A DNA stretch of 64,000 nucleotides. It comes from a virus. The translations under genes were made by a program, and so were the position numbers. Shown here piece by piece: positions 12,600-37,900 of the stretch (its first letter is position 1; every line of letters starts with the position of its first letter). The DNA lies in IMG/VR virus record IMGVR_UViG_3300045902_000666, positions 37,744-101,743 of that record. One strand, given 5' to 3'. The notes under the pieces were generated by a model that was not told the origin of the DNA, made no database searches, and was given only the letters and a program-made list of their open reading frames with translations.

Positions 12600-13307
12600 C
12601 TACCAGTACATCCATCTTGCAGAATGACGATGGTTATATCTGTATTCATAATCATCATAATCACCTACTTTAGAAAGGTTTCTTTTCAAAGCTTTCTTGT
12701 TGTAATTTCTGTCAGAACGAGTAAAATCCTTTCTATAATCTTTAGGAGGATTTCTTCTTCCATCATACCAGCCACCAACTGGCCAGAACTTTTTCTGACA
12801 CAAATAACCCTTTCTTTCAGACTCCTCTTTAGCCAACACAGAATCAAATTCTTGATAGTGTGTAATCCAGCGAGGTTTGATTTTTTCTACGAAGTAGTAG
12901 CTAGGAAATGTACATTCATATATTTTTCTGAATGGACTCCAACGTCTACTCCAAGGGCTAATTGCTGAAAAATACTTTTTAACAGCAGGATGCAATTTTT
13001 CATAAGTTTCCTCAGAAATATCTCCAAATCCCGGATAAAGATATTCGTATTTTCCTTTGCTTAATTTTGTTCTGAAGGATTTATCTTTACAAAAAACCCT
13101 GTGTCCAACAAGTTTTAAGCATTCATAAAATACCCAAGCATCATCACGATTTTTGATGTCTTCTCTAAGGTCATGAAATTTGTAATAGCCGTCTTTGTAC
13201 GGTTTTTCAAGTTCAACCCAATTTTTATTGCGTTGAATTTTCCAGATTTGATAAATTTCTTTTTCAAGTCTGAGTTTCTCTTTGTAGAGAGGATGTTTTG
13301 AATTCAT
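12600..13307 (-). CDS. Basic aromatic-rich hypothetical protein downstream of a uORF-hairpin
   Basis: 235-aa K/R/Y/W-rich ORF; start codon at the base of a hairpin. Confidence 0.65.
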   Translation of the reverse strand: MNSKHPLYKEKLRLEKEIYQIWKIQRNKNWVELEKPYKDGYYKFHDLREDIKNRDDAWVFYECLKLVGHRVFCKDKSFRTKLSKGKYEYLYPGFGDISEETYEKLHPAVKKYFSAISPWSRRWSPFRKIYECTFPSYYFVEKIKPRWITHYQEFDSVLAKEESERKGYLCQKKFWPVGGWYDGRRNPPKDYRKDFTRSDRNYNKKALKRNLSKVGDYDDYEYRYNHRHSARWMYW

Positions 13308-13327
13308 TGGCGTTTAAGTTTATTTAC

Positions 13328-13372
13328 TTAAATCGCCAAAACTCCTCCACAGCTATTTTTACGAATGTTCAT
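13328..13372 (-). CDS. Leader peptide MNIRKNSCGGVLAI (TAA stop inside hairpin)
   Basis: 14-aa uORF; hairpin TTGGCGATTTAAG/CTTAAACGCCAA (13307-13339) includes the A of the downstream ATG. Confidence 0.55.
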   Translation of the reverse strand: MNIRKNSCGGVLAI

Positions 13373-13410
13373 AAATCAGTTATTTTTTATAAATATACAA
13401 ATTTTGTCAA

Positions 13411-13438
13411 TTATACGCAAAACAATAATAAAGGTTCC
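13411..13438 (-). promoter_or_regulatory. ECF-like promoter GGAAC-N16-CGTATAA
   Basis: Repeated motif. Confidence 0.7.
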
Positions 13439-13447
13439 TTTTTTTTG

Positions 13448-13521
13448 TGATTCCGATAGGACTTGAACCTACAACCCTCTCCTTAGGACGGAGTAGCTCT
13501 ATCCAGTTGAGCTACGGAACC
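13448..13521 (-). tRNA. tRNA-Arg(CCT)
   Basis: Cloverleaf GGTTCCG..., anticodon loop GT-CCT-AA, T-loop GGTTCAAGTCC. Confidence 0.9.
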
Positions 13522-13522
13522 A

Positions 13523-13807
13523 TTAATTTTGAGAATCCTGAATATCTTTCCAGATTTGTTTATCTATAACATGTTTTGGTGTTCTCTCATATTTCAGATA
13601 TGAACACATTGGACAAGAACAAGGAGTGGAAGTCCATTTTAAAAATGTCCACATTTCCCCTTTTCTAATCTTGTCTCTAATCTCAGCGGAAGTCATTCTC
13701 TCCCATCCAAAATATTGATGCTGATTAGCAGGAACCCAAATTTTAAGACGCTTCTCAAATTTACATTTTTCTTTCCAGCGTCTTTCAGCTCTTTTTAAAT
13801 TTTTCAT
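13523..13807 (-). CDS. Small basic protein with PCSCPMC motif
   Basis: 94-aa K/R-rich ORF with Cys cluster. Confidence 0.65.
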   Translation of the reverse strand: MKNLKRAERRWKEKCKFEKRLKIWVPANQHQYFGWERMTSAEIRDKIRKGEMWTFLKWTSTPCSCPMCSYLKYERTPKHVIDKQIWKDIQDSQN

Positions 13808-13865
13808 TTTACCTCAGATTTTGTCAGAGGTAGAGTGAATTGAGGACTTTCCTTATCACCCTACC

Positions 13866-13910
13866 TCATCGTTTGAGGTAACGAGCTTTATATGTTTTGT
13901 GAGTATTCAT
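13866..13910 (-). CDS. Leader peptide MNTHKTYKARYLKR (TGA stop) with alternative hairpins
   Basis: 14-aa uORF followed by mutually exclusive TACCTC/GAGGTA pairings ending next to the ATG at 13807. Confidence 0.55.
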   Translation of the reverse strand: MNTHKTYKARYLKR

Positions 13911-13935
13911 AATTTTCTATAAATATACGACTTTT

Positions 13936-15141
13936 TTAAACATTATCCACTTCAAAAAGACCAATTTTTTTCATACCAACATACAAATCAGACATTAACT
14001 TGAAAAACATTACTTTGTTTTCTTCATTGCCAGATATATGATGTGTTGTATACAAAGAATTAATCTCTTTACATAATTCAACCAAAGCTTGAAATAAAAC
14101 ACTTGGGTTTAGAGCTGCTTTAGCTTTAATATAAGCGTACTTAATCTCTGGCTTGATAAAATCATCAGCCGAATGGTTTAAATCAACTCCAGCACTTTTT
14201 AAACGAGCCATAGTATAACTTAAATATAATCCGGGAGAATTTTTATGATTCTTCATCAAACTCATATCAAAAGTCTTATCTGACTTTGGCGAGCCTCCCA
14301 AAATATATCCTGCAAAAATGTTATAGGCTAATTTTTCATCACCATTAAACTCTTCTTTTAATTCTTCCATAAAATCTGAAAGATAAACAACATTACGAAG
14401 ACGTGTAGACATTTTACCATTTGCAGATGGAATCATTTTATTTGACTTCAATTTAACAAGCCCCAATCCTACATGTGTTATATGAGGATAAACTTTATTT
14501 AAAAGTTTAAAATGATTCTCTTGTTCATATCCAGTCAAATAAAGAGTATCATCATTTAAAAGAGATGCCAATGCTAAATCCTGATAAAAATAAGAAGTAG
14601 AACCATCTTTTTTTATTACAACAATTTTTTCTTCTCCAGCCTCAACTATTTTTGTTCCTTCATATTCTCCTTCTCCATCTTTCAATTCACCTCCATATTT
14701 CATTTCGGAAGCAAAGAAAATTTTATCTACTTTATAGTCAAAATTTTTACAGTGTTCTTTGAATTTTTCCAAAGCTTCTTCTTTAGAAACATCACCAGTT
14801 AATGTATCTCCAAGCATAGAAACATATTCTTCAGCGACTCCAAGTTTCTGAAATGCTTTAGCTAAAATTAAATTTGAAAAGTGGCCAATATGTAAATGTT
14901 TATTAAGATTTGGGCTGAACCCATCCATGTATTTGAACTTTTTTTCCCCTATAAACATTTTACCAAAATCTGTTTTTTCAGTAGGGAAAAAATTGGTGTA
15001 TCCTTTTTCTTTTTGAATTATAAAATTGCAAGACTCTGCTAGGTTTAAAACTTCTTGTGTTGGTTCGCCAAATACACAAAACCCAAATCCTTTATTAAGA
15101 TTAGAAGGTATTACTTTAAATAAACTCGAATCTGTTGACAT
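13936..15141 (-). CDS. argS: Arginyl-tRNA synthetase, reduced (~401 aa)
   Basis: FSPNLNKHLHIGH (HIGH), KKDG.TSY..DLA, KMSTR, PGLYLSYTMARLKS; probable ATG at 15141. Confidence 0.85.
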   Translation of the reverse strand: MSTDSSLFKVIPSNLNKGFGFCVFGEPTQEVLNLAESCNFIIQKEKGYTNFFPTEKTDFGKMFIGEKKFKYMDGFSPNLNKHLHIGHFSNLILAKAFQKLGVAEEYVSMLGDTLTGDVSKEEALEKFKEHCKNFDYKVDKIFFASEMKYGGELKDGEGEYEGTKIVEAGEEKIVVIKKDGSTSYFYQDLALASLLNDDTLYLTGYEQENHFKLLNKVYPHITHVGLGLVKLKSNKMIPSANGKMSTRLRNVVYLSDFMEELKEEFNGDEKLAYNIFAGYILGGSPKSDKTFDMSLMKNHKNSPGLYLSYTMARLKSAGVDLNHSADDFIKPEIKYAYIKAKAALNPSVLFQALVELCKEINSLYTTHHISGNEENKVMFFKLMSDLYVGMKKIGLFEVDNV

Positions 15142-15156
15142 TGTTTTTGTTTTTTG

Positions 15157-15247
15157 TACAGGAGGAGGGATTCGAACCCCCATTGGCATTGCTGCTTCAA
15201 CTCCAGTTACGGATAAAAGTTTAGAAAACTTCCTCGGTTACACCTGC
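15157..15247 (-). ncRNA. Atypical tRNA-like RNA without D-arm, TCT (Arg) anticodon-like loop, large variable region
   Basis: Acceptor GCAGGTG/CTCCTGT, T-arm GGGGG-TTCGAAT-CCCTC, stem GAAGT-TTTCTAA-ACTTT. Confidence 0.6.
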
Positions 15248-15255
15248 ATATTTTG

Positions 15256-15328
15256 TGACCCGAACAGGAATCGAACCTGTGACCGACTGCTTAGAAGGCA
15301 GTTGCTCTATCCCCTGAGCTACCGAGCC
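15256..15328 (-). tRNA. tRNA-Arg(TCT)
   Basis: Canonical cloverleaf, ACTGC-CTTCTAA-GCAGT. Confidence 0.92.
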
Positions 15329-15334
15329 ATATTT

Positions 15335-15520
15335 TTATTCATCTTCTAAATCTACAATCACATAAAATTTGACTATAGATTTTTCTTTGAGAATTTTTAG
15401 TTTAGGATTTTCATATCCTTTTTCTAAAGCTCTCTTTCTATACTTTTCATAAACCGTATCAAAATCTTTTTCAATTTCTTTACGTTTTATTTTTCCAATA
15501 TAAAACATTCTCTGTTCCAT
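15335..15520 (-). CDS. Small hypothetical protein within the tRNA array
   Basis: MEQRMFYIGK..., 61 aa; the longer ORF call overlaps tRNA-Ser. Confidence 0.5.
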   Translation of the reverse strand: MEQRMFYIGKIKRKEIEKDFDTVYEKYRKRALEKGYENPKLKILKEKSIVKFYVIVDLEDE

Positions 15521-15522
15521 CT

Positions 15523-15611
15523 CAGAGAGTGAGAGATTCGAACTCTCGCATCGTTTTACCGACCTACTTCCTTTCCAGGGAAGCCCCTTACAACCACTTG
15601 GGTAACTCTCT
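15523..15611 (-). tRNA. tRNA-Ser(GGA)
   Basis: CTTCC-CTGGAAA-GGAAG, long variable arm, G73. Confidence 0.92.
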
Positions 15612-15622
15612 ATAAATTTATC

Positions 15623-15687
15623 GGCTGAAGAGTGGATTCGAACCACTAAATAGCTAGTACGTACTTAACTATCCTTCCAACTTCAGC
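15623..15687 (-). ncRNA. D-armless tRNA-like RNA (~65 nt) with possible ACG loop
   Basis: Perfect acceptor GCTGAAG/CTTCAGC, T-arm AGTGG-TTCGAAT-CCACT, central stem ATAGTTA/TAGCTAT. Confidence 0.6.
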
Positions 15688-15693
15688 ATCTTG

Positions 15694-15783
15694 CGGAGAG
15701 ATAGGGATTCGAACCCTAGGTACAGGTTTACCCCGTACAACAGCTTAGCAGGCTGCCCCGATAGACCACTCTGGCATCTCTCC
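15694..15783 (-). tRNA. tRNA-Ser(GCT)
   Basis: GCAGC-CTGCTAA-GCTGT, long variable arm. Confidence 0.92.
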
Positions 15784-15794
15784 AAATTATTTCG

Positions 15795-15865
15795 CACAGG
15801 TGGAGAGATTCGAACTCCCGTCAACGGTTTTGGAGACCGCTATTCTACCACTGAACTACACCTGT
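15795..15865 (-). tRNA. tRNA-Trp(CCA)
   Basis: GCGGT-CTCCAAA-ACCGT, short variable loop, G73. Confidence 0.92.
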
Positions 15866-15873
15866 ATATTTTG

Positions 15874-15963
15874 CACGTTGGGAAGGATTCGAACCCTCGA
15901 AGAGTTAATTACACTCTTTACAGTTTTGGAGACTGCTGCCTTCAACCACTCGGCCACCAACGT
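15874..15963 (-). tRNA. Type II (long variable arm) tRNA with Trp anticodon CCA
   Basis: GCAGT-CTCCAAA-ACTGT; variable arm AAGAGT/ACTCTT; Ser/Leu-type D-arm. Confidence 0.8.
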
Positions 15964-15969
15964 ATTTTG

Positions 15970-16054
15970 TGGAAGGTGTGAGATTCGAACTCACGGACCC
16001 CGAAGGGCCTCTAGTTTTCAAGACTAGTGCAATAGACCGCTCTACCAACCTTCC
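15970..16054 (-). tRNA. tRNA-Ser(TGA)
   Basis: CTAGT-CTTGAAA-ACTAG, long variable arm. Confidence 0.92.
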
Positions 16055-16057
16055 AAT

Positions 16058-16486
16058 TTATTTTTTCAATCTTTCAATTTCTTCTTTTATATCTTCTGTT
16101 TTAGTTCTCTTTCTTAGATGATAATATTTGTTCTTATCTATTTTTTCAAAGGGAATAAACCCATCAAAATGTTTATCAATCTGGTCTGCAAAATGTTCAA
16201 TCCTTTCAAGGAATGGCTCAAATTGATAGTTAATCGTTAAGAACACTCCAAGTTTTTCATCCCACTGTGCAAGGCCATGATTGCGAAATCTTACACCCAA
16301 ATAATATGCTCCATCAACAAGTTCTTCTTTTGGTATAGCTTCCTCAAGAAGTTTTTTTTCATGAAGCTTTTCTTCTTCATATTCTTCTTTCAAACGCTCT
16401 CTATTCTTTTGTGCATTTTCCTTTATTTCGTCTGCTTTTTTCTTACCAAACTTTTCTACTAACTTATTATAATGTTCTTCTTTCAT
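16058..16486 (-). CDS. Hypothetical protein, first gene after the attenuator
   Basis: 142-aa ORF. Confidence 0.6.
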   Translation of the reverse strand: MKEEHYNKLVEKFGKKKADEIKENAQKNRERLKEEYEEEKLHEKKLLEEAIPKEELVDGAYYLGVRFRNHGLAQWDEKLGVFLTINYQFEPFLERIEHFADQIDKHFDGFIPFEKIDKNKYYHLRKRTKTEDIKEEIERLKK

Positions 16487-16512
16487 TTTTTTCTTTTTAA
16501 ATTATTACAAAT

Positions 16513-16545
16513 AAAAAACCCCAGCTCTTTTGCAGAACCAGGGTT
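16513..16545 (-). terminator. Intrinsic terminator of the attenuator
   Basis: AACCCTGGTTCT-GCAAA-AGAGCTGGGGTT followed by a T-run. Confidence 0.8.
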
Positions 16546-16578
16546 ATACTGTTTTAACTTAAATATCTTTTAGAAAAG

Positions 16579-16668
16579 TTACGACAATATAGATGCTGGT
16601 CCGCTAGTTCTTTTTGAACTCGAACTTGAACTTCTCCAAGACCATCTATATGTTGTTGTTACTTTCAT
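16579..16668 (-). CDS. Attenuator leader peptide MKVTTTYRWSWRSSSSSSKRTSGPASILS
   Basis: 11 consecutive Arg/Trp/Ser codons; overlapping alternative hairpins; terminator 3' of it. Confidence 0.75.
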   Translation of the reverse strand: MKVTTTYRWSWRSSSSSSKRTSGPASILS

Positions 16669-16706
16669 GTTTTTATAAATATCAAAAATTTTCTTTTTTC
16701 TTGAGA

Positions 16707-16734
16707 TTGTACGCAAAGATAATAAAAAAGTTCT
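16707..16734 (-). promoter_or_regulatory. Promoter of leader/tRNA unit (AGAAC-N16-CGTACAA overlapping Bacteroidota -7 TATCTTTG)
   Basis: Motif variant about 40 nt upstream of the leader ATG. Confidence 0.6.
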
Positions 16735-16753
16735 ACAAAAGTCAAGTTTTTTT

Positions 16754-17020
16754 TTATTTTTTTTGCAACTTGTTGATTCCGAACCATTCATCCCTTGTTA
16801 TTTTTATTACAAAAGAAGTGTTAATCTGGAAAAAATTCTTTATCTGGGAACAAATTTCATATTTTTCTAAATTAGAATAATATTCTAAAGCCTCTTCTAT
16901 TATGAACGTAGGTATTAGTTCTTCATCTATTTTTTTCATTGTGTTATTGGCCAAAGAAGCTATACCATGATACATCATTATATCAATCTTACACGCTTTA
17001 TGTTCTCCTTTAAGCTTCAT
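16754..17020 (-). CDS. Hypothetical protein
   Basis: 88-aa ORF. Confidence 0.5.
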   Translation of the reverse strand: MKLKGEHKACKIDIMMYHGIASLANNTMKKIDEELIPTFIIEEALEYYSNLEKYEICSQIKNFFQINTSFVIKITRDEWFGINKLQKK

Positions 17021-36913: not shown

Positions 36914-37900
36914 TTATTGCGATACCTTCTCAGTTGATTTTTCAACACTATTCTCTTTAGACAACTCAATTTCATACTTATCAGAAAGTTCCTTAATTAT
37001 TTTTGTATACTCTATAATTGCTTCAAATTCGTTTGAAAATTTTGAAGAATTTTCGTATAAATATTCAATTTTTTTAGAAAGCTCTTTTTTAAAGGTTAAA
37101 TAATTTTTATGATTTTTATTTATTCCGTTTAAGTATGTTGCAATACTACCACGAATAATTTCTGCAAAAGTAATGTTTTCTTTTTTATTTTCAAACTCTT
37201 CTACTGAATAAAATTTTAAAGTTTCTGAAGAATCCAAAATTTCATAATACAGCTTATCCAACTTGCCCATTCTATTCTTGGTGGTTTCAATGGTTCTTGT
37301 GTTTTTCTTTTTATCATAAACCATGTGAACATGAGCATCTGCATCATGCTTTAAAAAGTTAGCACCCTGAAAATCTCCATCCTTTGTAACTTGTCCAATA
37401 ATGATAACAATACCATTTTTTCTATCTTTCCAAGACATAAGGATAGAGTAGATATGTCTCATTGCAGCCTCTAATGACATACCTTGTTTTGTATAATCTT
37501 CAGCTATACGTTGGATTGAGTCTAAAATCAAAATCTTGATGTCTGAACGACTCTCTACCATCTTCATAAACCCATCCATATGAGGAAAGTCTTTAACATC
37601 CGCAATATAAGCATTGCTATGTTTTATATCCAAACGCAATGTTTGTTTTTTAACAAGAGAACTTAACATTTCTCTTGAATAAAATACAGAAACGTATTCA
37701 GAAATAAGAGATTGTAATTTCTTACACAAAGTTGTTTTACCAGCTCCAGAAGTACCAGTAAGGAAAATCAAATTAGCCCATTCAATACCCCCTTGAGCAG
37801 AGAAAAGGTTATCCAATTTATCATCCCCAATCTTAACCGATGGAGTTGAAATAATCTGAACTTGTGAATAATTTTTCATTGTCTTTGCGTTTGTTTTCAT
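36914..37900 (-). CDS. RadA/Sms-like RecA-fold ATPase
   Basis: GTSGAGKTT, ILDSIQ, GQVTKDGDF.G...LKH..D, KNRMG; no Zn finger or Lon-like domain. Confidence 0.75.
   Translation of the reverse strand: MKTNAKTMKNYSQVQIISTPSVKIGDDKLDNLFSAQGGIEWANLIFLTGTSGAGKTTLCKKLQSLISEYVSVFYSREMLSSLVKKQTLRLDIKHSNAYIADVKDFPHMDGFMKMVESRSDIKILILDSIQRIAEDYTKQGMSLEAAMRHIYSILMSWKDRKNGIVIIIGQVTKDGDFQGANFLKHDADAHVHMVYDKKKNTRTIETTKNRMGKLDKLYYEILDSSETLKFYSVEEFENKKENITFAEIIRGSIATYLNGINKNHKNYLTFKKELSKKIEYLYENSSKFSNEFEAIIEYTKIIKELSDKYEIELSKENSVEKSTEKVSQ

Follow-up and report, generated by a model that had tools for sequence, protein, structure and literature searches.

Results

Organization of the locus

On the minus strand of the window, by which we mean the whole stretch of 64,000 nucleotides that was analyzed (positions 37,744 to 101,743 of IMG/VR record IMGVR_UViG_3300045902_000666), a gene for a basic protein of 94 amino acids is preceded by a short upstream open reading frame (uORF) and a two-tier hairpin and is followed by a tRNA gene. 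Its features, in minus-strand order, are these.

13936-15189: ArgRS-like ORF of 417 aa, ending just upstream of the leader
13918..13928, minus strand: gene-start signal (promoter-like motif GTATATTTATA), 7 nt ahead of the uORF ATG
ATG 13910-13908 to TGA 13868-13866, minus strand: uORF of 14 codons plus TGA, reading MNTHKTYKARYLKR, opened by the first ATG after the start signal
13874..13884, minus strand: outer helix, 5' strand, covering uORF codons 10-13 (from minimum-energy folds)
13880-13875, minus strand: segment 1, TACCTC, within the outer helix 5' strand
13867-13856, minus strand: inner helix, 5' strand, or segment 2, GAGGTAGGGTGA, starting within the uORF stop codon
13843..13853, minus strand: small apical stem-loop atop the inner helix (from the fold)
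13838-13827, minus strand: inner helix, 3' strand, or segment 3, TCACTCTACCTC (from the fold)
13817..13826, minus strand: A-rich internal loop UGACAAAAUC, unpaired, separating the two 3' strands (from the fold and the aligned leaders)
13804..13816, minus strand: outer helix, 3' strand, and main start codon ATG 13807-13805 (from minimum-energy folds)
13815-13810, minus strand: segment 4, GAGGTA, followed by AA and then ATG 13807
13523..13807, minus strand: gene for the 94-aa basic protein, with 38 homologues
13447..13521, minus strand: tRNA-Arg(CCT), found by ARAGORN and Rfam, 1 nt after the stop of the 94-aa gene
13307-13420, minus strand: second leader, ahead of a 235-aa gene at 12600-13307, with its start signal at 13388-13398 and a hairpin of 13 bp

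A preliminary description of this DNA had read the region ahead of the 94-aa gene as a four-segment translational switch, in which pairing of segments 1 with 2 and 3 with 4 would exclude the 2:3 helix, and which would sense arginine decoding or RF2-dependent termination at the UGA codon of the uORF. Its inventory is accurate on the minus strand for the uORF and for the letters and positions of all four segments. In the window, the frame that lies beyond the uORF stop does contain a second TGA and three AGG codons and closes at a TAA that a single base separates from the ATG, and tRNA-Arg(CCT) does come after the gene.

The 38 homologues of the 94-aa protein share 46-96% identity. In their alignment (A1) the M-K start is invariant, as are C63, C65 and C68, while C15 is nearly so; these four conserved cysteines, three of them within the motif TSTPCSCxxC, sit in a strongly basic protein. 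The alignment indicates that the ORF is a real and conserved member of an unnamed Cys4 family with a fixed start. No match to the protein was detected in Pfam, in a PDB profile search, in the protein atlas or by Foldseek, and its AlphaFold model is weak (pLDDT 68). A viral-contig search with the single 94-aa protein returned no match, and a genome-contig scan for relatives found none. Its ALRR-aromatic-K...C and YE-K/R-P motifs suggested a resemblance of the product to ribosomal protein bS21. No search supported this identity: there is no PF01165 in the contig, 25 family members lack any Pfam hit at E <= 10, and neither the PDB profile search (E <= 10) nor Foldseek returned the protein.

The source virus record is 101.7 kb in length, has a G+C content of approximately 30% and is 37% complete by CheckV. 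Samples containing the phage (runs X1-X5) come from hot springs or microbial mats. Its long ORFs are intact under table 11, and among 48 of them stop codon use is TAA 38, TAG 5 and TGA 5, which rules out TGA as a sense codon. A phage suppressor tRNA is present with anticodon CTA, which reads UAG, and the uORF stop is UGA.

Start signals and Shine-Dalgarno use

Many long-ORF ATGs of the contig have TATTTATA 0-17 nt ahead of them, often with TTTG just upstream (example sites are at window positions 970, 6024, 32698, 19920, 17333 and 16681), and at some genes the motif is only 0-4 nt from the ATG. At the 94-aa gene it is present ahead of the uORF ATG and absent ahead of the main ATG. The 11-mer start signal occurs 13 times at no more than one mismatch, compared with 4.4 occurrences expected, and the motif also lies ahead of the uORF at homologue loci L001, L022, L024, L027 and L029. 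The position of TATTTATA suggests either a phage promoter whose mRNAs would have little or no leader, or an initiation signal or enhancer rich in AU. We infer a promoter role for the start signal, and hence the likely transcription start of the leader.

Shine-Dalgarno (SD)-like motifs are not enriched ahead of the genes, being found at 7 of 94 long ORFs compared with 7.65% of random positions, and the host appears to be of a type that does without SD pairing. The closest DNA matches of the window are uncultured phages of 634-636 kb; the genomes larger than 634 kb that are described in PMC7162821 have Bacteroidetes as their predicted hosts, and a study of that group describes mRNA structure, rather than SD pairing, as what tunes initiation (PMC6847099). 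Since the genome shows no SD use, we regard segment 4 as a masking strand and not as an SD sequence.

Fold of the leader

The 141-nt leader has a predicted folding energy of -35.8 kcal/mol, compared with -18.5 +/- 3.3 kcal/mol for 200 dinucleotide shuffles, none of which was as good (z -5.24). The 2:3 helix comprises 12 bp including one G-U. Segments 1 and 4 pair too, and therefore the minimum-energy fold is nested, with 1:4 around 2:3. The alternative 1:2 plus 3:4 conformer is 5.5 kcal/mol less stable in the window (-26.1 versus -31.6 kcal/mol), and segment 4 is paired in both. The A-rich internal loop might serve as a ribosome standby site. In a relative contig, from run X10, the leader carries one change, at 13848, within the apical loop.

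Rfam matched nothing except tRNAs in 13200-17000 (E <= 1). No terminator-like site was found in 13250-14150 and no U-run follows either helix; the locus thus lacks the intrinsic terminator alternating with an antiterminator that a trp- or his-type attenuator requires. Neither the uORF nor the read-through frame contains a Pro-Pro arrest motif.

Conservation of the leader across homologues

Homologue loci were drawn from IMG/VR, metagenomes and GenBank. Every full-length homologue has an upstream uORF, of 11-16 codons (40 in L033), that enters the 5' strand of a hairpin, and approximately 10 homologue leaders, whose proteins are 36-76% identical, each fold alone into the same architecture with helices that differ in sequence. 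The outer 5' strand falls within the final 11-25 nt of the uORF, so that the outer helix joins the closing uORF codons to the 7-13 nt that reach the main start codon. In 12 of 12 leaders the gap from the end of the 3' strand to the main ATG is 0-3 nt, and the uORF stop and the main start are separated by 38-58 nt. In these 12 leaders, therefore, an upstream ORF overlaps the partner strand of the downstream start region. The conservation of the leader ahead of homologues, which had been proposed as a check on the preliminary description, bears it out in part: uORF and two-tier hairpin recur in approximately 10 lineages with covariation. How far the outer helix varies can be seen from its two strands (5' / 3').

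Window: UACCUC / GAGGUA
L001 clade: UUCAGG / CCUGAA
L031 and L032: AAUAGU / ACUAUU
L033: ACUCAUA / UAUGAGU

Two alignments of the leaders were used, one made with MAFFT (A2) and one guided by a covariance model (A4). In A4 the inner helix is 99% paired, with changes on both sides at 8 of 9 pairs, and A2 gives a similar result. Across all 19 pairs of A4, 85.5% of cells are paired compared with 69.2% in shuffled alignments, none of 500 of which was as high, although the lineages are related and these figures overstate their independence; in slid controls, 30-38% of cells are paired. The outer helix is only 79% paired in the fixed-register alignment because the distant members use another register, and their own folds contain 8-16 bp. 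The fixed register of MAFFT and of the covariance model cannot align the outer helix of L031-L033, which was judged from single-sequence folds. The covariance model retrieves only these leaders, with one copy in the contig and no further ones.

In addition to the helices, the aligned leaders share an unpaired GA(C/U)nAAAA that separates the two 3' strands and, at the base of the inner helix, an invariant A-G. Control of small RNA-binding proteins by their own products through leader hairpins is common, and the leader could be an operator of this kind, to which the 94-aa product or the ArgRS-like enzyme would bind as a repressor, with the uORF incidental or modulating. The persistence of the A-G and of the GA(C/U)nAAAA loop even where the helices wholly differ would fit such a site, as would the strong basicity and the Cys4 site of the product. 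However, an operator does not account for the open uORF that every lineage retains, always in the same frame and with its stop within the hairpin, and the 94-aa protein has no recognizable RNA-binding fold, its model being of low confidence (pLDDT 68). We consider an operator unlikely.

The uORF itself is constrained in position. Its frame is identical in all lineages of A2. The same three A2 columns, immediately 5' of the inner helix, hold its stop as TGA in the window, L027 and L032 and as TAA in L031 and L033; the L001 clade has a sense codon at these columns and a TAA four codons on, in the apical loop. In 8 of 8 leaders tested the first ATG opens a frame that crosses the outer strand and terminates ahead of the 3' strand (null p 0.03-0.23 each). 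No known arrest motif occurs in the uORF peptides, and because their sequences are poorly conserved, it is the translation of the uORF, rather than its peptide, that appears to matter. A fusion of the uORF to the main ORF by frameshift or read-through is excluded, as the frame offset between them is 0, 1 or 2 among lineages. The sequence GAGG in segment 4 occurs only in the window, L027 and L053, with CCTGAAG in most homologues and other sequences elsewhere; across the homologue leaders there is no conserved SD in segment 4, and the nucleotides next to the start are masked in all lineages.

These comparisons bear on two simpler explanations. A 14-codon ORF alone is ordinary in DNA of 30% G+C (window null p 0.23), and one could therefore imagine chance inverted repeats beside a chance short ORF in AT-rich intergenic DNA; with a fold z of -5.2, covariation across lineages and conserved geometry, however, coincidence is extremely improbable and is practically refuted by the comparative data. 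Alternatively, the interrupted helix of approximately 20 bp might be an RNA processing or stability element, that is an RNase III-type site or a protective 5' hairpin of the mRNA-tRNA co-transcript, in which translation of the uORF plays no role. A long interrupted helix spanning about two turns, an mRNA joined to a tRNA that needs processing, and the lack of an intrinsic terminator, which would have suggested another role, would all suit such an element. Yet it would need neither an exact end at the start codon, found at 0-3 nt in all lineages, nor an overlap with a conserved uORF, and the next gene has a second leader with the same start-masking geometry. We rate a processing element as quite improbable.

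The four-segment alternative and modeling of the ribosome

The strands of the hairpin can also pair among themselves. In the window, the self-pairing of the 3' strands amounts to -8.2 kcal/mol and that of the 5' strands to -8.9 kcal/mol (z -4.2 and -3.3 compared with shuffles). As further controls the order of base pairs was permuted within the helices, which keeps the nested fold. Against these pair-order-shuffled controls, self-pairing of the 3' strand stands out in three cases only, namely the window (matched by 2% of controls), L053 (0%) and, marginally, L033 (2%), and strand self-pairing is no better than the controls in 7 of 10 lineages. The exchange of 1:2 plus 3:4 for 2:3 that the preliminary description put forward is therefore available to the window and to L053 and is not family-wide, being absent from seven lineages. 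The broader claim of that description, that a uORF-linked structure controls access to the start of a small basic Cys protein, gains support from the recurrent architecture, geometry and covariation.

The four-segment layout is clearest in L053, a phage of 462 kb. There the 1:2 plus 3:4 conformer is the energy minimum (-18.9 versus -16.5 kcal/mol), and a 14-codon uORF ends in the competing strand. At L053:1411-1503 (LR756500) a perfect AAGGAGG lies 6 nt before the ATG, and its pairing with the preceding strand hides it in a 13-bp hairpin.

We modeled translation of the uORF by stepping a ribosome with a 28-nt footprint along it, considering equilibrium only. In the window, the probability that the start region is unpaired is 0.27 in the free RNA, rises to 0.57-0.65 when the A site is at codons 8-11 (AAA GCU CGU UAC), with strand 1 under the ribosome, and is 0.35 at the stop. 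L001, L023, L027, L031 and L032 resemble the window in this model, L022 and L024 barely open and L053 never opens.

A second leader at the neighboring gene

The 235-aa gene has a leader of its own, unrelated to the first, with a 14-codon uORF MNIRKNSCGGVLAI and the 13-bp hairpin ending at ATG 13307. In L001, L023, L024, L025, L027 and L028 the hairpin of this leader is kept, as is a uORF, of 14-19 codons, that contains the motif xGG(V/L/I)xR; where an indel changes the frame of the uORF, the stop relocates with the frame. Because the 235-aa gene has this second conserved leader, the uORF-hairpin design recurs in the phage group.

Within the uORF of the second leader, at 13340-13350 and approximately 35-40 nt before the main ATG, a GGAGG (a perfect SD core) is conserved. 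It is common to the window, L001, L023, L024, L027 and L028, in a genome otherwise without SD use, and the hairpin, once folded, would be predicted to draw it near the ATG.

Linkage to tRNA-Arg and arginine codons

In L001 and L022-L028 the tRNA-Arg(CCT) gene, presumably co-transcribed with the 94-aa gene, begins 0-6 nt beyond it according to the listed coordinates. Homologues of approximately 101 aa form a distant branch in gut phages (L002-L021), where the gene is located inside tRNA arrays, approximately 70 nt before a tRNA-Arg(TCT); at L031-L033 and L053 no tRNA follows it. The conserved linkage of the protein gene with tRNA-Arg points to a possible unrecognized protein partner of phage tRNA-Arg. 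The ArgRS-like ORF gives weak matches to the class I Arg catalytic domain (E 8e-6) and to the DALR domain (0.008).

Three further observations were made at these genes. In one contig of run X10, an aquatic metagenome, 13438 is joined to 13520, and because it skips these 81 bases, which are the tRNA-Arg(CCT) gene, a relative may lack the tRNA or carry something else there. A weak tRNA-like Rfam match at 15157-15247 (30.4 bits) overlaps the 5' end of the ArgRS-like ORF. At the gut-phage loci L002-L021 (for example L003:2830-2870) the homologue ATG lies in the loop of a CGTCTC...GAGACG hairpin, an overlapping upstream ORF traverses the 5' strand of this hairpin, and the contigs bear a suppressor tRNA with a CTA anticodon.

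Arg codons occur in the long ORFs at 25.6 (AGA), 5.4 (AGG), 4.6 (CGT), 1.35 (CGC) and 0.75 (CGA) per 1000. Approximately 17% of uORF codons are Arg compared with approximately 4% in the long ORFs, and the uORFs favor the rarer AGG and CGN; apart from the window, every tRNA(CCT)-linked homologue has an in-frame AGG within its outer 5' strand. It was on the arginine codons and the UGA stop that the sensing proposal turned, whereby dwell of the ribosome at either would set the fold, and output of the 94-aa protein would follow Arg-tRNA supply or the efficiency of termination, with feedback involving tRNA-Arg(CCT) and the ArgRS-like gene. Close linkage of the tRNA-Arg(CCT) gene behind the 94-aa gene at every close homologue locus, with TCT in the distant gut phages, the ArgRS-like gene just upstream in the window, the richness in rarer Arg codons and the AGG within the outer 5' strand are all consistent with this proposal, as is the CGU of the window, which falls within the modeled "open" interval. 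Moreover, of the 5 uORFs whose stop is at the conserved position, 3 end in TGA, a rare stop (5/48).

On the other side, most lineages have TAA and not TGA, which is confined to the window, L027 and L032, and because the TGA stop is unconserved, RF2-specific sensing is not a feature of the family. Nor is the read-through frame with its AGG codons conserved: L032 meets a TAG after 3 codons, and the offset between the uORF and the main frame varies. The window uORF is itself without AGG, the AGG-bearing leaders form one clade and hence reflect a single evolutionary event, helix strands are expected to hold G/C-rich Arg codons, a modeled ribosome at the AGG fails to open the start in 4 of 5 lineages, and no known arrest motif is present. 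Given the single clade and the need of helix strands for G and C, the richness in Arg and AGG is a lead and not evidence of sensing, and a sensor of Arg decoding or of UGA and RF2 seems to us improbable.

Discussion

Taken together, our results favor, with a probability of roughly 0.55, a conserved cis-acting translational leader in which translation of the uORF unzips a mask over the start of the 94-aa gene and thereby gates it. A translation-coupling switch is most likely real because related phages keep the design with different sequences. The folded leader would hold the gene off, because initiation without SD pairing requires the start region to be free of structure. To translate the uORF, a ribosome would have to melt the outer helix, exposing the start for initiation or re-initiation, and expression of the 94-aa protein would thereby be coupled to translation of the uORF.

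In the lineage of the window this coupling may carry a further, bistable layer. Strands 1 and 3 are alike there, as are strands 2 and 4, and a ribosome at the uORF stop would let 3:4 re-mask the start, whereas one positioned 3-6 codons before the stop (AAA GCU CGU UAC) would leave 2:3 whole with the start most open. Access to the start would then depend, as in erm leaders, on where the ribosome dwells.

A more specific, and doubtful, version of the arginine proposal has the leader sensing Arg decoding by ribosome position in an SD-blind host, with feedback on the phage tRNA-Arg supply. On a transcript with almost no leader, the uORF would load ribosomes at the 5' end. Their dwell at rare Arg codons, which are CGU/CGA in the window and AGG in relatives, would pick 2:3 or 3:4, and the fold would set the output of a small protein that would bind Zn and act either on the co-transcribed tRNA-Arg or together with it. 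If true, this would be a phage-borne feedback loop for the phage's own tRNA-Arg supply.

To our knowledge, the switching of individual genes in SD-less systems is poorly understood. The leader represents a conserved cis-regulatory RNA family with covariation, absent from Rfam, in large environmental phages that are apparently SD-independent, and a uORF with a hairpin at two neighboring genes offers a simple model for gene switching in such systems. The device also offers a handle on a small, conserved Cys4 protein, the gene of which lies directly upstream of tRNA-Arg in two distant groups of phages.

Comparison with known systems

In the ermC and ermB attenuators a leader peptide is combined with four pairing segments, with the SD of the regulated gene in segment 4. 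Similarities are a short leader ORF over segment 1, a segment 4 that carries the start region and, in the window and L053, the competition of 1:2 and 3:4 with 2:3, the conformers lying within 2.4-5.5 kcal/mol of one another. By contrast, the window has a nested ground state (1:4 plus 2:3), which erm leaders lack, the alternative is absent in 7 of 10 lineages, and neither a conserved SD in segment 4 nor a known stalling peptide or inducer is present.

In the infC-rpmI-rplT operon of E. coli, translation of rpmI opens the start of rplT, and the coat and replicase genes of RNA phage MS2 are likewise coupled. As in these systems, the upstream ORF here overlaps a strand that pairs with the downstream initiation region, and a ribosome must melt that strand. 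The differences are that the upstream ORF is a dedicated uORF of 11-16 codons and not a functional gene, that a two-tier hairpin, whose conserved A-rich loop stays open, forms the mask, and that the leader appears to work without SD pairing, its dependence on uORF translation being a prediction.

Korolev et al. (2016, PMC4833913) propose that leader ORFs boost downstream translation through re-initiation and report a distance peak in phyla that include Bacteroidetes. The leader ORFs that they describe resemble the uORF in being short and ending shortly before a structural gene; they differ in that the gap here is 38-58 nt rather than approximately 10 nt and is bridged by a conserved hairpin. 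Similarly, uORF-mediated coupling or RBS occlusion (PMC13285730) involves a short leader ORF before a structural gene. The class of mechanism is therefore already known, and what is new at this locus is the RNA family, its SD-poor phage setting, its recurrence at two adjacent genes and its tie to tRNA-Arg.
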